Shown here: positions 17,415 to 29,363 of the stretch, piece after piece
Layout: each line of letters begins with the position of its first letter
Position numbering within the stretch: position 1 is the stretch's first letter
Source: Patescibacteria group bacterium
Lineage (GTDB): Bacteria; Patescibacteriota; Microgenomatia; UBA8517
NCBI GenBank assembly: GCA_035260845.1
Contig: DATFUL010000001.1
Span: 4,245 to 68,244 of the forward strand
Direction: 5' to 3'
DNA: 64,000 nt
Notes under the pieces: model-generated
Told to the model about the DNA's origin: nothing
Databases searched by the model: none
The model's input: the letters and a program-made list of their open reading frames with translations, nothing else
Program-made: the position numbers and the translations under genes

Positions 17415-17533
17415 GTTCTGGCGATGAGCTATTTTCGCGGTAGGTTGCCCCACAACTATCGTCACCGCTACAGCGTTTCACTTCTAAGTTCGGAAAGGGA
17501 TTAGGTGGTTCCACTGCGCACTGATCACCAGAA
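17415..17533 (-). rRNA. rrf: 5S ribosomal RNA
   Basis: The reverse complement reads TCTGGTGATCAGTGCGCAGTGGAACCACC...CCGAACTTAGAAGTGAAACGCTGTAGCGGTGACGATAGTTGTGGGG...GCCAGAAC, matching the 5S consensus. Flanked by inverted repeats AGAACACTGTTCTGG / CCAGAACAGTGTTCT. Confidence 0.85.
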
Positions 17534-17596
17534 CAGTGTTCTTAAAGTTTTTTGTTTTATATTAAAAGAGAAAGGTCGCGTCCAGAGTGTGTCTGG

Positions 17597-20910
<3,314 letters not shown>

Positions 20911-21128
20911 GACACCATATTCGCACTGAATATGATCGGGACGCGACCTTCCTCTTCTAATTACACGTCAGAATCGTCTGACGTGACAAAAAAACTTAAA
21001 CTTCACAAAATTTATTATTAATAAATTTTGCGTTATTTCTTTATGTTAATGAGCAATTAGCTCTTGTTTACTTAACAGCTAAAGGACAGCTCCGATCAAA
21101 ATCGGAGCTCGCCTCTACCTACTAAGTG

Positions 21129-21201
21129 TGGACCCAGTGGGGGTCGAACCCACTACCTCGTCATTGCAAATGACGCGTTCAGCCAGTTAAACTTTGGGCC
21201 C
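21129..21201 (-). tRNA. tRNA-Ala (anticodon UGC)
   Basis: Reverse complement GGGCCCAAAGTTTAACTGGCTGAACGCGTCATTTGCAATGACGAGGTAGTGGGTTCGACCCCCACTGGGTCCA. The anticodon loop TTTGCAA gives UGC. G3:U70 and the A73 discriminator (Ala identity elements) are present. The T-loop is GGTTCGA. Confidence 0.85.
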
Positions 21202-21408
21202 AAGTTTAGCTTCCAAAGCCGCTATTTCTACTTTTAGGCTTGCTACATAATCTTGCAAAACTTTGAGCTCGCTACTTGCAAGTTCTCCTGATGCTGATTC
21301 ATGTGCAACTCCCCTAAAATGACTGAGTCTAAATTTTACTTTAGCCTCATATTCAGATAATTTTATTAAAAGTGCTTCCAGTTTTTCCTTGTCAGACAGT
21401 AGTTTCAT
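21187..21408 (-). CDS. Small coiled-coil ORF (73 aa) inside the rRNA spacer; possibly spurious
   Basis: ORF only. It overlaps the 5' end of tRNA-Ala by about 14 nt. A terminator-like hairpin lies just 5' of it on the minus strand. Confidence 0.2.
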   Translation of the reverse strand: MKLLSDKEKLEALLIKLSEYEAKVKFRLSHFRGVAHESASGELASSELKVLQDYVASLKVEIAALEAKLGPKV

Positions 21409-21580
21409 GGCAAAAATAAACCAGCTTTTTGAGCTGGTTAAACTTATTTTGAGGTCAAATCAAGATCAATTACGCACGCAAAATTGCGTTTGTTTTAGTT
21501 GAAATTAGATAAGTTCTCATTAAATAGCTTTGTTCCGACTCAAAGACTAGGGGCAAGTATAGCAAAATCAGATATTAGCG

Positions 21581-21883
21581 TCAAGTAGCTGCGGCAACAG
21601 GATCAATTCTGGTATAAATTACCGGATGATTGGCCAATTTGATCTTAACTGGACCACCTTTTAAAGGATTGTCGGCTCTAGTACAAGGCTCAAGAACTAC
21701 CCTTGCAACCATTGCTGAAGATATGCTTTTTCTATACTTAACTTCCTCATGTCCGGCAATACGTTCGGAGATATCAAAATTTCCTATAACGCGATTTTTA
21801 ATTAGTGGGCAACTTGCAACATAGTCGCAAGTAACTCCAGGTACGCACTCTACACGGACAGAAACATCAAATTCAATAGACAT
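21581..21883 (-). CDS. Hypothetical 100-aa protein encoded between tRNA-Ile and tRNA-Ala on the rRNA strand
   Basis: ORF with balanced composition and several Cys (CVPGVTCDYVASCP). No recognised motif. Confidence 0.35.
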   Translation of the reverse strand: MSIEFDVSVRVECVPGVTCDYVASCPLIKNRVIGNFDISERIAGHEEVKYRKSISSAMVARVVLEPCTRADNPLKGGPVKIKLANHPVIYTRIDPVAAAT

Positions 21884-22069
21884 AGGGGGTTATTATATCA
21901 CAAATCTCCCGATTATGAGGGCTTTTTATCTGATTTCAAAAACAGTCTTTCCCACTTTAAGACCAGGTGATCATGATCGTTGTGGATTGGCTATCTGAAT
22001 TTGGGCATTTTCTGCTACCTTATTAAACGCATTTATAAAATTCTCCTCACCCATTAATAAAGAGAGTTT

Positions 22070-22144
22070 TGGTGGGTGCGCATGGGATCGAACCATGGAC
22101 CTCGTTCTTATCAGGAACGCGCTCTACCACTGAGCCACGCACCC
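22070..22144 (-). tRNA. tRNA-Ile (anticodon GAU), 3' CCA encoded
   Basis: Reverse complement GGGTGCGTGGCTCAGTGGTAGAGCGCGTTCCTGATAAGAACGAGGTCCATGGTTCGATCCCATGCGCACCCACCA. The anticodon loop CTGATAA gives GAU. Confidence 0.85.
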
Positions 22145-22265
22145 AAAACGCAAAGCTATTTTACCATTCATTTGATGAATGGCCAAGATCCTCTCTTACC
22201 ACGAGAAATTTAAATCCACATGTACCGAAAGCCTAGATCTTCAATTTGCTATATAATATTCTTGT

Positions 22266-23330
22266 ATGCCTGCTCTCACCACCCTGCTTCTTAAACTTCC
22301 TCGTAATCAAGATATTACCCCTGAGGCTGCAAAAACATTTCTTTCTGCTTTAACTCAAATCAATTCTGTCTCTACTTTTCAGAGACTACTTGGGACCCGT
22401 CCCCACCCTTTGGCTCTTGAGATTGCTGCTATAAATCAGCAAATACAATTTTTAATAACTTGCGATAACGAACTTGTTCCTTTTGTAAAAACTCAGATTC
22501 AAAGCAGTTACCCACTAGTCATTATTGAAAAGGTAGAAGATCCAATCCTTAGTCGGGATATGGAAATTATCGAATTAAAACTTGCAAAAGGTAGTTATTA
22601 CCCTATTGGTACTTACGATAAATTTGCAGATGTTGACCCAATAAGTTCCACCCTCTCCGTATTGTCAAAGGTAGAACCTACAGAGTTTGCCATTATTCAA
22701 ATATCACTTGAGGGAACACGAGGCGTTTGGCAATCTAAAGCCAATCAGTATGCGGACCGCGGCGTTAAAAATGAAGATGGTAGTTATCAGCCAAGATCGG
22801 ATAAAAACATCATAATCGAGAAAACTTCTTACCCAGGTTTTAAAGTTTCCATACGACTAGCTAGCAGTGCAACCAAAACCGCAAAAGAACTTGTTAATGC
22901 TTTTGGTGTCTTTGCTAGAGCCGACGCCAACTTTTTTAAGAAGAATTCTTCCATTTTTAATTCAGTTAAAGCACTTAATAAGAATATAAAAATAAGAAAA
23001 GTTGTGGGGAATCAGGTTTTGAACATTATGGAACTAGCAACTCTTTGGCATTTGCCTTCCGAAAAAATTAAAGTAACAGGAATAGCTTGGGGAACATCAG
23101 TTCTTTCAGAACCTCCCGACAACCTTCCAAATGCAGTTACTGCTACAGAAGAGGAAAAAATCATATCAATTTTTTTGGTAAAACTATTTTCAAAAACCAC
23201 GATACAATTTTTGGAATCAAAGATATTGATCGCCGCCGGCATATTTGGTCAATTGGTAAAACAGGAACAGGAAAAAGCACCCTTATTGCAAACATGGCAA
23301 TTGACGACATTAAAAAAGGCAAGGGTGTAG
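22266..23330 (+). CDS. N-terminal portion of a HerA/FtsK-superfamily (DUF87-like) ATPase, likely joined to the downstream ORF by a -1 frameshift at a T7 tract
   Basis: Sensible protein sequence continues up to ...TATEEEKIISIF at the T TTT TTG heptamer (23171-23177). Downstream of that point this frame loses conserved motifs, while the -1 frame carries the conserved ATPase sequence. Confidence 0.5.
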   Translation: MPALTTLLLKLPRNQDITPEAAKTFLSALTQINSVSTFQRLLGTRPHPLALEIAAINQQIQFLITCDNELVPFVKTQIQSSYPLVIIEKVEDPILSRDMEIIELKLAKGSYYPIGTYDKFADVDPISSTLSVLSKVEPTEFAIIQISLEGTRGVWQSKANQYADRGVKNEDGSYQPRSDKNIIIEKTSYPGFKVSIRLASSATKTAKELVNAFGVFARADANFFKKNSSIFNSVKALNKNIKIRKVVGNQVLNIMELATLWHLPSEKIKVTGIAWGTSVLSEPPDNLPNAVTATEEEKIISIFLVKLFSKTTIQFLESKILIAAGIFGQLVKQEQEKAPLLQTWQLTTLKKARV

Positions 23331-24403
23331 CCATTATCGACCCTCATGGAGACTTGTGCGATGTAATAATGAACTATATTCCAAAGCACAGAATTAACGA
23401 TGTTATTTATTTTAATCCGGCTGACAAAGACTACCCGATAGTTATCAATCCCTTAGAAGTTACGAATAAAGAAGAGGCTGAGCTTGTTGTTTCCGGAATT
23501 GTTTCGATATTTAATAAAATCTTTGGTTTTTCCTGGGGACCCCGCTTGGAATATATTTTACGAAACGCCCTAACAACCCTAGCCGAAGTCCCAAATTCAA
23601 CTCTTAAAGATGTTTCGCTTCTTTTAACCAATCAAACTTTTAGGACCAGGGTGGAAAATAGCATTAAAGACACAACGATGAAACAATTTTGGCGAGATGA
23701 ATTTGACCAAATGACCGACAAATTAAGACAAGAGGCTATTTCGCCGATTTTAAATAAAGTTGGCCAGTTTGTCACTTCCCCACTCATAAGGTCGGTTATA
23801 GGCCAACCAAAAAGCTCAATCAAACTTGACGACATTATGAACGAAGGAAAAATCCTAATTGCTAACCTGTCACAAGGAAAGCTGGGTGAGGATAACGCTG
23901 CCCTTCTTGGAGCAATGTTAATTACCAAACTCCAGCTTGCTGCTATGCATAGAGTCGACATGAAGGAAGAAGATAGACGGGATTTTTATTTATATGTTGA
24001 CGAGTTCCAAAACTTTGCCACAGGAAGCTTTATTAAAATTATGTCTGAGGCCCGCAAATATCATTTGAATATTATGCTTGCTAACCAATATATGGCCCAA
24101 ATTCCTGAGGAAGTCAGAAAATCAATCCTAGGAAACGCCGGGACAATAATGACTTTGGCTGTTGGAGCAAGCGATGCCGAAATACTATACAAAGAACTTG
24201 CAGAGGTTTTTTCACAAAATGACTTAGTTAATCTAGGTAACCACCAAATTGCTGCCAAAATGACGATTGACGGCAAAACAACAAGGCCATTTTTGGGAGT
24301 CACCCTTCCCCTTGGAACTTCCAATAACCAAAACCGGGATACGGTAATCCAGGTAAGCAGGGAGCGCTGGACACAAAAATTAAACCCTCAAAATAACCCA
24401 TAG
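23087..24403 (+). CDS. HerA/FtsK-like P-loop ATPase domain (DUF87-type); the real N-terminus is probably supplied by the upstream ORF, and the TTG start is an ORF-caller artefact
   Basis: Walker A RRRHIWSIGKTGTGKS and DPHGD (IIDPHGDLCDV). Walker B FYLYVDEFQNF. ARKYHLNIMLANQ ... motif typical of HerA/DUF87 and TraG-D-like ATPases. The first 30 aa of this frame look non-protein-like (CSYCYRRGKNH). Confidence 0.65.
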   Translation: MGNISSFRTSRQPSKCSYCYRRGKNHINFFGKTIFKNHDTIFGIKDIDRRRHIWSIGKTGTGKSTLIANMAIDDIKKGKGVAIIDPHGDLCDVIMNYIPKHRINDVIYFNPADKDYPIVINPLEVTNKEEAELVVSGIVSIFNKIFGFSWGPRLEYILRNALTTLAEVPNSTLKDVSLLLTNQTFRTRVENSIKDTTMKQFWRDEFDQMTDKLRQEAISPILNKVGQFVTSPLIRSVIGQPKSSIKLDDIMNEGKILIANLSQGKLGEDNAALLGAMLITKLQLAAMHRVDMKEEDRRDFYLYVDEFQNFATGSFIKIMSEARKYHLNIMLANQYMAQIPEEVRKSILGNAGTIMTLAVGASDAEILYKELAEVFSQNDLVNLGNHQIAAKMTIDGKTTRPFLGVTLPLGTSNNQNRDTVIQVSRERWTQKLNPQNNP

Positions 24404-25523: not shown

Positions 25524-26594
25524 TTGTTTCTTCTCGGGATGCCGGGAGACTATCGGTATACCGATACTCCCCCCAACCCCCCCCTAACCCACCCTTTAAA
25601 AAAACTCACTTACTTCTCTTGCCATAATTTGACAACTAATTTTTTTGAAATTAATTGTGAAATTATGGATAGAAAAATAATGTATGCATCAGCTATAGCC
25701 ATTGAATTCTGGCTAGCTTCTTGTGCAAAACAACCAAAACCGATCTTAGCATCTGTAACACCAACGATTGCGCCTCCTGCTGAATTTACACCGACTAAAA
25801 CCGAAACCCCAATGCCAACTGCAACTGAAAGAGCCATAATTACAGTCGATGAACGTTTTAAACTTGGCAACTACGATGCGGCAGTCGATCAATTAACAAT
25901 AAAGGTCGGGAAAGAATTAAGAGATTTACTAGGATATTCACTTCTTGATTCCGGAAAGTTTAGTGTTGATATTCCGCTTGCTATTAAAAGTAATTCATTA
26001 GGTACTGAAGACCAATTCAGAATATTTGATGAAGGATCAAGAAATCGTAACAGTGATGTGGTTATGAAGGCGGCCAATGGCCGTGGTGGAAGCCATCCAA
26101 ACCCTGGCTACATAATCGCGCTTGATGCCTACCCTGGCAAAGAGCCAAAGGGTGTTGCAATTTATACCCACGATGTTCAAACTTTTCCATCCCCAGCCCC
26201 GACTGGTGACCTCGGCCTTGATATTTTGCAATGGGTAAGTAAGCATCCCGATAGAAAAGATGAGGTTAAGGGTAAGACGGCTGAGTTTTCCACCGACAAA
26301 GGTATAAGTTTTGAAGGCGAAATTGTTCATGCTGGTTATGTAAGTCAATATTTTTGGACAGGAGGAGATGGAAAAAATAGCCCATTTAGAACGTTCACAA
26401 GCGGTGACAATATTTTATTTGCAGACTCCGAAGCCCTCGGAATTCCACAAGATGTAGTTAAAGGTCTTGCAGAAGATGAATATTTAATAGTGATTGACAG
26501 TTGTTTAGGAGGAGACCCTGGAGAAACAACTGAAAGTATTAACGAAAATTCCAAAAACAGACTTGTTCTTGTCTTTAAAGTCAAAATAAAATAA
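25524..26594 (+). CDS. Hypothetical lipoprotein; probable true start at the internal Met around 25667-25682
   Basis: Internal MDRKIMYASAIAIEFWLASCAKQ carries a lipobox (LASC). No catalytic motif recognised. Confidence 0.45.
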   Translation: MFLLGMPGDYRYTDTPPNPPLTHPLKKLTYFSCHNLTTNFFEINCEIMDRKIMYASAIAIEFWLASCAKQPKPILASVTPTIAPPAEFTPTKTETPMPTATERAIITVDERFKLGNYDAAVDQLTIKVGKELRDLLGYSLLDSGKFSVDIPLAIKSNSLGTEDQFRIFDEGSRNRNSDVVMKAANGRGGSHPNPGYIIALDAYPGKEPKGVAIYTHDVQTFPSPAPTGDLGLDILQWVSKHPDRKDEVKGKTAEFSTDKGISFEGEIVHAGYVSQYFWTGGDGKNSPFRTFTSGDNILFADSEALGIPQDVVKGLAEDEYLIVIDSCLGGDPGETTESINENSKNRLVLVFKVKIK

Positions 26595-27400
26595 TGTCTG
26601 AAATTACTCCAAAAAAGATTGCCCTTTTTACCTTTGCAGCCGCATTGGGTGTAGCGGCTATTGCCCCAGTTGTTGCTAAAGCCATGGAAATAAATAATGA
26701 CAATAAGCCAAAACTTTTGACACAAGTACCGCCACTAACTTTTACACCTAACCCCACCCAAATTCCTAACGTGCACCAAACAGCATTCCCCACTCCATAT
26801 TTACTTGAAATAAAAGCCAAAATTCCAGTAGACATTCCTTTTTTTTCCCAGCTTGAACCCGTCTATAAGCAGATTTATTTCCAAGATGGAACTTCCTGGA
26901 GTAAGGTGGGTTGTGAAATTTTCGCGGGAGCAATGTTAGATAGAACCACTCCTAAAACCTATTATCAGAATTCATTGGATTACTTTGCCAAGCAGAGAAA
27001 AGACGGCACACAAAGATTTTCTAAAGATGGAAGCAGTTACGAAGATCTTATTGCTGTTTTGACAGACAAAGGTCACACATTTATAGAACTTTCCAAAGGA
27101 AATAACACAAAATTTGAAGATGTTAGGGCTTTAATTAAGAAATATACCGATCATGGTATTCCCGTATTGGTAAGGGGGGCTATTTGGCTTGGAAACGGCA
27201 CCCTAGGACATATGTCGGTTATTGTTGATGTCAATGAAAATGGAGGCTTAGTCTCAAATGACTCAATTTGGGGTAAAAATTACGTAATTGATGAATCAAA
27301 ATATCTTGAGGAAATAAAAAGTAGGGAAAGAGATGTAGACTCTACCAATAGCCTCAAGGTTTTCGCTGTTTACCCACCAACTACAGTTCCTACCCCTTAA
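26594..27400 (+). CDS. Secreted C39-like (papain-fold) cysteine peptidase domain protein
   Basis: Signal peptide. The IPFFSQLEPVYKQ...KVGCEIFAGAMLD segment resembles the VPxxxQ...xCGxAxxAM motif of peptidase_C39-like domains. A downstream candidate catalytic His lies in GTLGHMSVIVDV. Confidence 0.5.
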   Translation: MSEITPKKIALFTFAAALGVAAIAPVVAKAMEINNDNKPKLLTQVPPLTFTPNPTQIPNVHQTAFPTPYLLEIKAKIPVDIPFFSQLEPVYKQIYFQDGTSWSKVGCEIFAGAMLDRTTPKTYYQNSLDYFAKQRKDGTQRFSKDGSSYEDLIAVLTDKGHTFIELSKGNNTKFEDVRALIKKYTDHGIPVLVRGAIWLGNGTLGHMSVIVDVNENGGLVSNDSIWGKNYVIDESKYLEEIKSRERDVDSTNSLKVFAVYPPTTVPTP

Positions 27401-27455: not shown

Positions 27456-27657
27456 ACTATGCACAGTATGACTGTCAAAGATTGGTTAACCGGTTAGAAT
27501 TCAATACCACTCCGCACAAAGGCGTCGGGTATTTCGTCTAACTACATGTTTTAGGACTCAAAATATGACTGAAAGCGTTTAAACCCGTTTTATTATTTTG
27601 ACAATTCAAAAAAGTCAAAACGGCGTTCTTAAAAACTGGGTGAAATTATCACTCCTT

Positions 27658-29125
<1,468 letters not shown>

Positions 29126-29363
29126 TAGTGCTAAAAATGGCATTTCAGCCATAGCTAGCGATCCTGCTTCCAGTCATATTTTGAATCCCAATACTGCTAG
29201 TATGGGTCGTTCCAAACTTCGCACAGAGGCTTGGAACACTTTGATTAACCTGAATCTTCGAAAGTAAAAGTACCCACAAATGAAGTTTTTACCCTGAAGG
29301 GAAGTTAACCTCCTACTCGAATATTGGTATTATATCACAGTGGAAAACATGGTCAATCCCAGA

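Follow-up and report, generated by a model that had tools for sequence, protein, structure and literature searches.

A structured leader with a candidate ribosome-dependent attenuator and a conserved small protein gene ahead of the 23S rRNA genes in Woesebacteria-type Patescibacteria

Leader-peptide attenuation, antitermination leaders of rRNA genes and attenuating leaders of ribosomal protein genes are classical modes of transcriptional control. In E. coli and other bacteria, antitermination in rRNA leaders and spacers depends on boxA, boxB and boxC together with Nus factors, the boxA consensus being CTCTTTAACAA/CTTTGA. Protein-coding sequence is also found within rRNA genes, as the proteins of 23S intervening sequences (IVSs; Pfam PF05635) and the homing endonucleases carried by rRNA introns of the Candidate Phyla Radiation (CPR) illustrate. 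Here we describe a locus in a 64,000-nt stretch of DNA from a Patescibacteria group bacterium (GCA_035260845.1, contig DATFUL010000001.1, positions 4,245 to 68,244; hereafter the window), where the gap between the genes for tRNA-Ile and tRNA-Ala holds a terminator-like hairpin and two open reading frames (ORFs). An earlier note on the bare sequence had remarked on the unusual width of this gap and on its contents, and these observations are borne out: ARAGORN and Infernal agree on both tRNAs and place them 868 nt apart, a 100-aa ORF lies at 21581-21883 and a 73-aa ORF (ORF73) at 21187-21408, both on the rRNA (minus) strand, and ORF73 overlaps the 5′ end of tRNA-Ala by 15 nt. ORF73 and the leader in front of it head a transcription unit that continues into tRNA-Ala, 23S and 5S, and the leader may be a ribosome-dependent transcription attenuator that contains a short upstream ORF (uORF).

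In its layout the leader is like the trp, his and leu attenuators, with a promoter, a short uORF, mutually exclusive antiterminator and terminator structures, and a U-run before the first gene. As in leader-peptide attenuators, the uORF lies inside one strand of the alternative structure, and a possible pause hairpin covers its last codons. The differences are equally clear. What follows the leader here is 23S, 5S, a tRNA and a small protein rather than genes for biosynthesis or resistance; regulatory codons do not occur in runs, Lys AAA excepted; the antiterminator draws its partner strand from the very 5′ end of the transcript, ahead of the uORF; and a single nested rod takes the place of the 1:2/2:3/3:4 scheme. 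Leaders of the rrn antitermination type share with this one a conserved sequence between a strong promoter and rRNA genes, AT-rich motifs that here are loosely boxA-like, and a G/T-rich block (TGCGTGG). In contrast to them, the motif here pairs with a terminator arm and seems not to recur in the 16S leader, and a uORF and an intrinsic terminator lie within the 23S leader. Like IVS proteins and homing endonucleases, ORF73 is protein-coding sequence on an rRNA precursor transcript, but it is dissimilar to them, lies outside any IVS or intron, is not mobile and keeps one position across the clade.

Translation stress is reportedly sensed by uORF attenuators that precede resistance genes such as msrD (10.1101/2021.11.29.470318) and by the uORF of topAI-yjhQ (PMC12121999). 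The B. subtilis rplJL leader is reported to be a structured leader under attenuation with a terminator just before a small translation-apparatus gene (PMC4538822); it differs in that ORF73 has no established ribosomal protein identity, and in that a uORF is present and rRNA genes lie downstream at our locus. Separation of 16S and 23S is reported to be common in Patescibacteria (10.1101/705046). The unlinked rRNA genes described for Patescibacteria/CPR resemble the present case in that 16S and 23S lie apart and are transcribed separately, but that study gives distances only and describes no 23S-unit promoter, leader, uORF or conserved protein gene (Brewer et al., 10.1101/705046). In literature searches we found no described attenuator before rRNA genes and no protein gene in rRNA spacers of these bacteria; nor did we find a description of this leader RNA, of the ORF73 family, or of a protein cistron between a promoter and tRNA-Ala-23S.

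The loci compared were 15 from species-representative genomes and 80 from metagenomes. The 23S-unit promoter of the window lies at 21556-21584 on the minus strand, as do all features below unless stated otherwise, and consists of TTGACG, a 17-nt spacer and TATACT with a TG extension. When 230 nt upstream of ORF73 were aligned with MAFFT, TTGAC and TAnAnT with a spacer of 17-18 nt proved invariant in all 56 of the 56 unique leaders aligned, and a regular expression for the promoter matches 57/64 unique leaders. The order of elements is TTGAC/TAnAnT, CTTTTGAGTTCGG, CTTAATGAGAA, an A-rich block, a small hairpin ending in TGCGTGG, and the terminator-like hairpin. The consensus of this last hairpin is ACCGGC-loop-GCCGGT followed by T6-8, and it ends 0-50 nt ahead of the ORF73 ATG. 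A profile of the leader gives a single nhmmer match per locus, and likewise a single match in the window (E=1.3e-26); Rfam has nothing for the leader at gathering or permissive thresholds.

The hairpin and U-run to which the earlier note had drawn attention are present at 21411-21439, have the canonical shape of a terminator, and are conserved. The stem-loop (21439-21419) is formed by AACCAGCT/AGCTGGTT around the loop CAAAA and is followed by TATTTTTG at 21418-21411; with eight pairs (four of them G-C), a 5-nt loop and the tail UAUUUUUG, it would qualify as an intrinsic terminator by its sequence. Its energy is -10.6 kcal/mol, within a range of -7.6 to -14.2 over the leaders. An automatic scan finds the hairpin in 56/64 unique leaders, and inspection in ~58/64. 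Its cells are paired in 91% of cases against 17-54% in slid controls, and G-C to A-U exchanges are seen, that of the window included. The earlier note had suggested that 23S-5S runs from its own promoter, and a promoter does exist (21584-21556); it lies upstream and not downstream of the hairpin, however, by ~110 nt, so that transcripts that make 23S must read through it. The comparison of leaders and of ORF73 reveals no conserved promoter past the hairpin or inside ORF73, so that RNA polymerase has to cross the hairpin to reach tRNA-Ala, 23S and 5S.

This arrangement bears directly on the simplest account of the hairpin, in which it is a plain terminator that blocks transcription from upstream (16S, tRNA-Ile and the 100-aa ORF) and leaves 23S-5S to its own promoter alone. 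The shape and strand of the hairpin would suit such an insulator, no other terminator is found from tRNA-Ile or the 100-aa ORF to the leader, and in compact relatives 16S is co-directional and just ~0.5 kb upstream. The conserved promoter upstream of the hairpin means, however, that the unit's own transcripts meet it too, while the 0-50 nt between hairpin and ORF73 are too few for a promoter. Nor does the idea that the hairpin stops transcription from the 16S side, put forward in the earlier note on the premise of a contiguous 16S-spacer-23S operon, agree with the window. Here the 16S gene (27660-29128), with a consensus-like promoter at ~29352-29325, is 5.5 kb from tRNA-Ile, and the interval consists of plus-strand genes. 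A terminator-like hairpin (CACTTCGTGAAGGGGTG + GTTTTTTAGT, 27434-27418) lies ~225 nt past 16S and is followed by these convergent genes, so no transcription derived from 16S is expected in the spacer. Since an insulator also leaves the conserved loop, the complementary 5′ motif and the uORF described below without explanation, we hold it to be improbable. The complementarity of arm and loop to the leader's 5′ end, with a conserved uORF in between, instead marks the hairpin as the likely terminator limb of an attenuator, which as a side effect may also halt transcripts that run on from tRNA-Ile and from the 100-aa ORF.

The antiterminator begins at the 5′ end of the leader. A strand at 21535-21546 (TCTTTGAGTCGG; consensus CTTTTGAGTTCGG) is complementary to the 5′ arm and loop of the hairpin, in that CTTTTGAG-T-TCGG complements CCGG-C-TCAAAAG, and this complementarity is the reason that the loop sequence is conserved. 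In leaders cut ahead of the 3′ arm of the hairpin, the minimum free energy (MFE) fold pairs arm and loop with the 5′ untranslated region (5′UTR) in 45/45 cases. The mean number of such pairs is 10.3, as opposed to 3.9 with the 5′UTR shuffled and 4.8 with the arm shuffled, and at least six pairs form in 100% of leaders compared with 33% and 49%, respectively. Both sides have also changed together in particular lineages, from GAG/CTC to GAAG/CTTC in L064, L096 and L097 and to GAGG/CCTC in L015 (L numbers denote related loci). For this pairing, P1, the paired fraction on the MAFFT alignment is 85%, and 23-58% in slid controls.

The whole rod comprises the leader RNA as far as the terminator loop (21427-21550). 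In its inner part the 5′ half of the uORF, including the AUG, pairs with the spacer past the uORF stop, and these pairings differ by lineage (CAAATCTA/TAGATTTG, AAAACCAAT/ATTGGTTTT, AGCGTAA/TTACGCT, ACAACT/AGTTGT); a duplex test of own versus cross partners lends this helix moderate support only. The tip is an apical hairpin at 21472-21489 (ACGCA...TGCGT) over the last uORF codons, where helix 7 is 88% paired and 5/8 pairs have changed on both sides; judged by its sequence, it is a possible pause hairpin. The same rod is obtained for ten diverse truncated leaders with z-scores of -2.1 to -6.1, while that of the window has a z-score of -2.62, with 2/200 shuffles folding as well. RNAalifold predicted no structure on the gappy MAFFT leader alignment, and truncated single-sequence folds and a covariance-model alignment were used in its place. 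From a seed of one subclass, a covariance model recovered and aligned 31 leaders, and in this structure-fitted alignment two-sided changes occur in 21/35 rod pairs, compared with 11.9 +/- 1.9 in shuffles (0/500 reach 21) and 6-9 in slid controls. A second-round model, R2, finds 55/71 sources at E <= 0.01; it matches the window once, at 21550-21427 (20.7 bits, E=0.029).

The position and composition of the two 5′ motifs also invite a reading as rrn-type processive antitermination, with CTTTTGAGTTCGG and/or CTTAATGAGAA as boxA elements that load Nus factors and render the polymerase resistant to the hairpin, which would then be a checkpoint for unmodified polymerase, and with an incidental uORF. 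The 5′ motif was at first read as boxA. The setting in an rRNA leader fits, both motifs loosely resemble the boxA consensus, and a vaguely similar pair occurs in the 16S leader. However, the motifs are not repeated above chance upstream of 16S, and boxA loading would not explain why the 5′ motif complements and co-varies with the terminator arm and loop or why the uORF frame is conserved. With the 5′ motif apparently not common to the 16S leader and pairing with the terminator arm, its assignment to boxA was given up, and antitermination of this kind is now given little credence.

Between the two limbs lies the uORF (21470-21520), whose 16 codons encode MRTYLISTKTNAILRA and whose ATG is inside the invariant TTAATGAGAA, so that its 5′UTR is only ~20-40 nt long. 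Its length is 16-17 codons in 53/58 unique leaders and 18-22 in the others. The frame is open across 16 codons in 58/58 leaders, while the other two frames are open in 1/58 and 21/58 and base composition predicts 31%. The stop falls at one shared site, as TAA in 31 leaders, TGA in 14 and TAG in 13. The peptides vary and contain no run of codons for a sensed amino acid; pairs of Lys AAA and a C-terminal L-R-G/A are common, and the peptides end in L/F-R-G/A. Thus, as far as the leaders can tell, what appears to be conserved is the act of translation and its length, perhaps with the C-terminus, on top of constraints at the RNA level. Inspection of the leader sequences found no trp-type 2:3 pairing between the 3′ end of the uORF and the terminator arm. 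When the uORF was masked, the mean predicted terminator probability rose from 0.59 to 0.72-0.77, and in some leaders from 0.05 to 0.9; no such rise was seen in the window.

The uORF also tells against a third account, in which the rod is an element for processing or protein binding and the uORF is not the sensor. The rod could be an RNase III stem that releases the ORF73 mRNA, or an autoregulatory operator bound by ORF73 or a ribosomal protein. With ~35 pairs the rod is long and irregular, which is typical of RNase III substrates, and it is kept in lineages that have no terminator; in addition, B. subtilis rplJL is reported to be under protein-dependent attenuation (PMC4538822). Such a role would not call for a uORF whose start, length and stop are conserved in 58/58 leaders. 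ORF73 is moreover equally conserved where the hairpin is absent, and nothing points to RNA binding by ORF73, which has an isoelectric point (pI) of ~8 and is near neutral. Processing or protein binding is thus unlikely, if somewhat less so than the two preceding alternatives.

The protein encoded behind this leader is well defined. GenBank lists both spacer ORFs as hypothetical proteins of a Patescibacteria metagenome-assembled genome (MAG). A single-sequence query with ORF73 yields 278 homologues at 65-88% identity, and a profile of divergent members at least 489 clusters. The homologues are all 65-129 aa long, none has a Pfam domain, and names, where given, are hypothetical or Woesebacteria/Patescibacteria proteins; those of 99-129 aa were discounted as products of wrongly called starts or of read-through into the tRNA. 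An alignment of 27 diverse members has 26 invariant columns, centred on FRGVAHESASGELASSELKV. The earlier note had asked how synonymous and nonsynonymous changes compare among relatives. In 16 genomic copies of ORF73, differences at the three codon positions are 0.23, 0.20 and 0.49, and the median proportions of nonsynonymous (pN) and synonymous (pS) differences are 0.18 and 0.69, with a median ratio of nonsynonymous to synonymous rates (dN/dS) of 0.14. The excess at third positions and the low dN/dS indicate selection on the protein and not on the RNA. The reading frame is intact in 96/96 loci. On this record ORF73 is a bona fide small protein gene, under strong constraint, of a Woesebacteria-type lineage.

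AlphaFold2, supplied with 120 homologues, models ORF73 as a helical hairpin with helices at 6-31 and 39-69 and a loop at 32-38, at a predicted local distance difference test score (pLDDT) of 81. In this model the invariant residues are found at the hairpin tip and where helix 2 begins. Pfam, NCBIfam, PHROGs and PADLOC have no family for ORF73 or for the 100-aa ORF, and searches of ORF73 against the PDB, by sequence profile and by Foldseek, returned generic helical hairpins only, all with E > 0.1. Several candidate identities were considered and dismissed. Weak matches to the C-terminal domain of ABC-F proteins (PF16326, ABC_tran_CTD) occur in 74/120 members over ~20 residues of helix 1, with a best E of 3e-4 over the 120 members and a top score of 19 bits among members checked individually, where the cut-off is 32; being below threshold and confined to helix 1, they were rejected as coiled-coil noise. 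Against E. coli sequences, hhalign gave a probability of 0.1% for GreA as representative of Gre/DksA-type secondary-channel factors and of 1.2% across 23 residues for ribosomal protein uL29, and neither assignment has a Pfam match. JGI names such as UbiJ, ferritin-like and CarD-like are not backed by any domain match. Our best guess is that ORF73 is a 50S-associated or translation factor made in step with 23S.

The place of ORF73 is fixed. In all 93 of the 93 loci with enough downstream sequence, which come from Woesebacteria-like Patescibacteria, it is followed by a tRNA-Ala(UGC) gene on the same strand; 23S comes after tRNA-Ala in 8/8 loci searched, and then 5S wherever the sequence extends that far. 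ORF73 is thus always the first long cistron of the 23S unit. In the window the unit continues with tRNA-Ala(UGC) at 21128-21201, 23S at 17596-20906 and 5S at 17416-17532. The ORF73 stop (TAA, 21187-21189) lies inside the tRNA, whose first 15 nt double as the final four codons and stop codon of the ORF. The distance from stop to tRNA is -15 nt in 30 loci, the window among them, -23 nt in 6 and +5 nt in 11, over a full range of -50 to +237 nt. Since the tRNA-Ala sequence is identical in kind with or without the overlap, and overlaps occur in two frames, extreme compaction is indicated and not a selected C-terminal tail, and the overlap looks opportunistic as opposed to functional. In overlapping lineages, RNase P cleavage would remove the last codons and the stop of ORF73. 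The tRNA-Ala itself is odd in the window and in most related loci, with A and not U at position 8 and a GTTT/GAAC D-stem, and scores 51-59 bits with Infernal compared with 60-71 for tRNA-Ile of the same loci; a canonical version (GGGCCGTTGGCTCAG...) is found in a minority of lineages, and the odd form is seen whether or not the ORF overlaps the tRNA. The 23S gene of the window contains a group I intron at 17927-18168 (Rfam RF00028, 58.5 bits), L012 and L015 carry one as well, and several 16S and 23S genes of relatives have been made longer by insertions.

Taken together, these observations make the anatomy of the leader (promoter, uORF, rod and terminator-like hairpin) very probable. On the sequence evidence four structural features of the attenuator class are present, and we regard the chances as evenly balanced that the leader is a ribosome-dependent transcription attenuator gating ORF73, tRNA-Ala, 23S and 5S. 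A possible course of events is as follows. With no ribosome on the uORF, the rod would zip up, tip first, while the spacer and next the 5′ arm of the terminator emerge from the polymerase. With the rod formed, the 5′ arm would be sequestered and the 3′ arm left partnerless, and the polymerase would go on into ORF73-tRNA-Ala-23S-5S. The freed 3′ arm and U-run would then leave the stretch before the ORF73 start open and rich in U, which would suit a genome that hardly uses Shine-Dalgarno sites: the motif precedes just 2/34 long ORFs of the window, though 16S ends in the canonical anti-Shine-Dalgarno sequence CACCUCCUUUCU. With a ribosome on the uORF, in turn, the 5′ strand of the rod would be occupied, the local hairpin would fold and transcription would stop. 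Output of 23S/5S, tRNA-Ala and ORF73 would thus go down when translation-initiation capacity is in excess and up when it is short. This direction of the switch, from translation to termination, is tentative, and we lean somewhat against it.

Several points weigh against this interpretation. Termination, read-through and translation of the uORF are all inferred from sequence, and that translation causes termination is argued from geometry alone. The uORF peptide has no third-position excess, and since the uORF nucleotides are constrained by pairing as well, an open frame might conceivably have arisen as a side effect. The count of two-sided changes comes from an alignment fitted to the structure. 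In the window the antiterminator is weak, with a C x A mismatch and a terminator probability of 0.92-0.94 in three modelled states, and the own-versus-cross duplex energies are no better than chance. The role of ORF73 is a guess, given a pI of 8 and neither a family nor an informative fold match. Finally, two lineages (L003/L010/L011 and L021/L054/L058) have no terminator near the ORF73 start and still keep the uORF and ORF73, which indicates that the terminator is dispensable and that ORF73 does not depend on it. These loci also keep the 5′ motif, and a recognisable promoter is seen in L003/L010/L011 only; the 3′ arm and U-run of the terminator have been lost, or the end of the leader is longer and different. 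They are a natural control group for the situation without a terminator.

At this locus 16S, tRNA-Ile, tRNA-Ala, 23S and 5S do not form a canonical operon, in which all genes would adjoin on a single strand and share a promoter region. Promoter-like sites of their own lie ahead of 16S, tRNA-Ile, the 100-aa ORF and the 23S unit, and the minus strand here comprises three transcription units: tRNA-Ile, the 100-aa gene, and the leader (~140 nt) with ORF73-tRNA-Ala-23S-5S. The tRNA-Ile(GAU) gene (22070-22144) has its promoter at 22158-22186 (TTGGCC, a 17-nt spacer, and TAAAAT with a TG extension), and the same extended -10 element, CATGTTAAAAT, precedes tRNA-Ile in relatives too, irrespective of the orientation of the tRNA. 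The upstream tRNA-Ile lies on the opposite strand at 39 loci and shares the strand of the unit at 19, a variability that fits tRNA-Ile as a separate unit. Across related loci (L001-L097), about two thirds of lineages have the tRNA-Ile that lies between 16S and the 23S unit in an orientation opposite to that of the rRNA genes, and insertions of 0.2 to >3 kb flank it on either side, which makes this site a hotspot for rearrangement. In L017 (2385-2580) and identically in L075 (~2270-2460), a tRNA-Ile like that of the window is apparently broken after ~11 nt by an insert of ~130 nt that holds a second, complete tRNA-Ile(GAU); the old 3′ half comes after the insert. In L016 (900-930), tRNA-Ile is reduced to its 3′ end (GATCCTATGCGCACCCACCA) upstream of the homologue of the 100-aa ORF, and ARAGORN finds no tRNA there.

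The 5.5 kb of plus-strand genes between 16S and tRNA-Ile include a TrwB/HerA-type ATPase (DUF8128/TrwB-HerA-type) beside tRNA-Ile, which is split over the overlapping frames 22266-23330 and 23087-24403 (plus strand). Both parts match consecutive stretches of phrog_5156, and the homologue in L017 is a single protein of 648 aa, which points to a frameshift, a pseudogene or an error in the assembly. The hairpin at 27434-27418 faces the end of the convergent gene 26594-27400. The 3′ end of 16S, CACCTCCTTTCT, is followed directly by AAGGAG (27640-27670), which could pair with the anti-Shine-Dalgarno sequence in the precursor. A sequence ~100 nt past 16S (27547-27565), ATTTTGAGTCCTAAAAC, is similar to CTTTTGAGTTCGGAAAAC, the 5′ motif in the leader of the 23S unit, and may be a relic of an ancestral spacer.

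The 100-aa gene has four conserved Cys, and its stop overlaps the -35 element of the 23S-unit promoter. An exhaustive HMMER scan yields two true relatives, the remaining matches being repeat proteins. One (P0122/L075; L075 is the same organism as L017) has 61% identity and the order tRNA-Ile, ORF, leader, ORF73; the other (P0124/L016) has 37% identity and the same order behind the 3′ remnant of tRNA-Ile. The four Cys are invariant and a C-terminal PVIY motif is conserved in these three lineages, and pN/pS is 0.53 in comparison with L075. Its putative promoter (21892-21900) is of the leaderless type, an extended -10 element (TGATATAAT) 8 nt ahead of the ATG, and TGnTAnAAT lies 7-8 nt ahead of the ATG in 3/3 copies. 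Many other genes of the window have TGnTATAAT 6-9 nt before the ATG (e.g., 55153, 31950, 52284, 12705, 63248), which suggests that leaderless mRNAs are widespread in this genome. A structure prediction, which the earlier note had proposed for this ORF, gave an AlphaFold model with a pLDDT of 52 that is unusable. Present in 3 of ~96 loci, the ORF is an accessory insertion at this site and, to judge from its conservation, a real but rarer gene.

The coding potential seen in the earlier note is therefore upheld for both ORFs, by a dN/dS of 0.14 for ORF73 and by occurrence in three lineages for the 100-aa ORF. It might still be argued that both are chance open frames in a non-coding spacer, given that neither matches Pfam, NCBIfam, PHROGs or PADLOC and that the 100-aa ORF has two homologues only and a poor model. 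For ORF73, intact at every locus and under strong constraint, this argument is already refuted; as for the 100-aa ORF, three lineages with identities as low as 37% all have an intact frame, the four invariant Cys and a conserved leaderless-type promoter. Chance is thus hardly credible as an explanation of the pair.

The findings define a widespread and strongly constrained small protein family (at least 489 clusters) whose place on the pre-rRNA transcript is fixed, a structured leader RNA that is new to Rfam, and an example of an mRNA whose last codons and stop sit inside a tRNA. They also bear on a long-standing question, namely how rRNA synthesis is matched to translational need. The known controls of rRNA synthesis act at promoters, through guanosine tetraphosphate (ppGpp) with DksA and through the initiating nucleoside triphosphates, and to our knowledge no direct molecular sensor for Nomura's "ribosome feedback" was ever found. 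A leader-peptide attenuator before 23S/5S would be such a direct feedback sensor, and if the attenuator reading is right, output of large-subunit rRNA would be inversely tied to free translation capacity. The most far-reaching version, a hard-wired ribosome feedback in which the sole route to 23S/5S passes a ribosome-sensing attenuator and ORF73 is a clade-specific 50S or translation factor made from pre-rRNA, is speculative and on present evidence rather unlikely. If true, however, it would mean that these bacteria, with one rRNA copy, unlinked 16S and 23S genes and very few ribosomes per cell, set the synthesis of large-subunit rRNA directly from their translation capacity.

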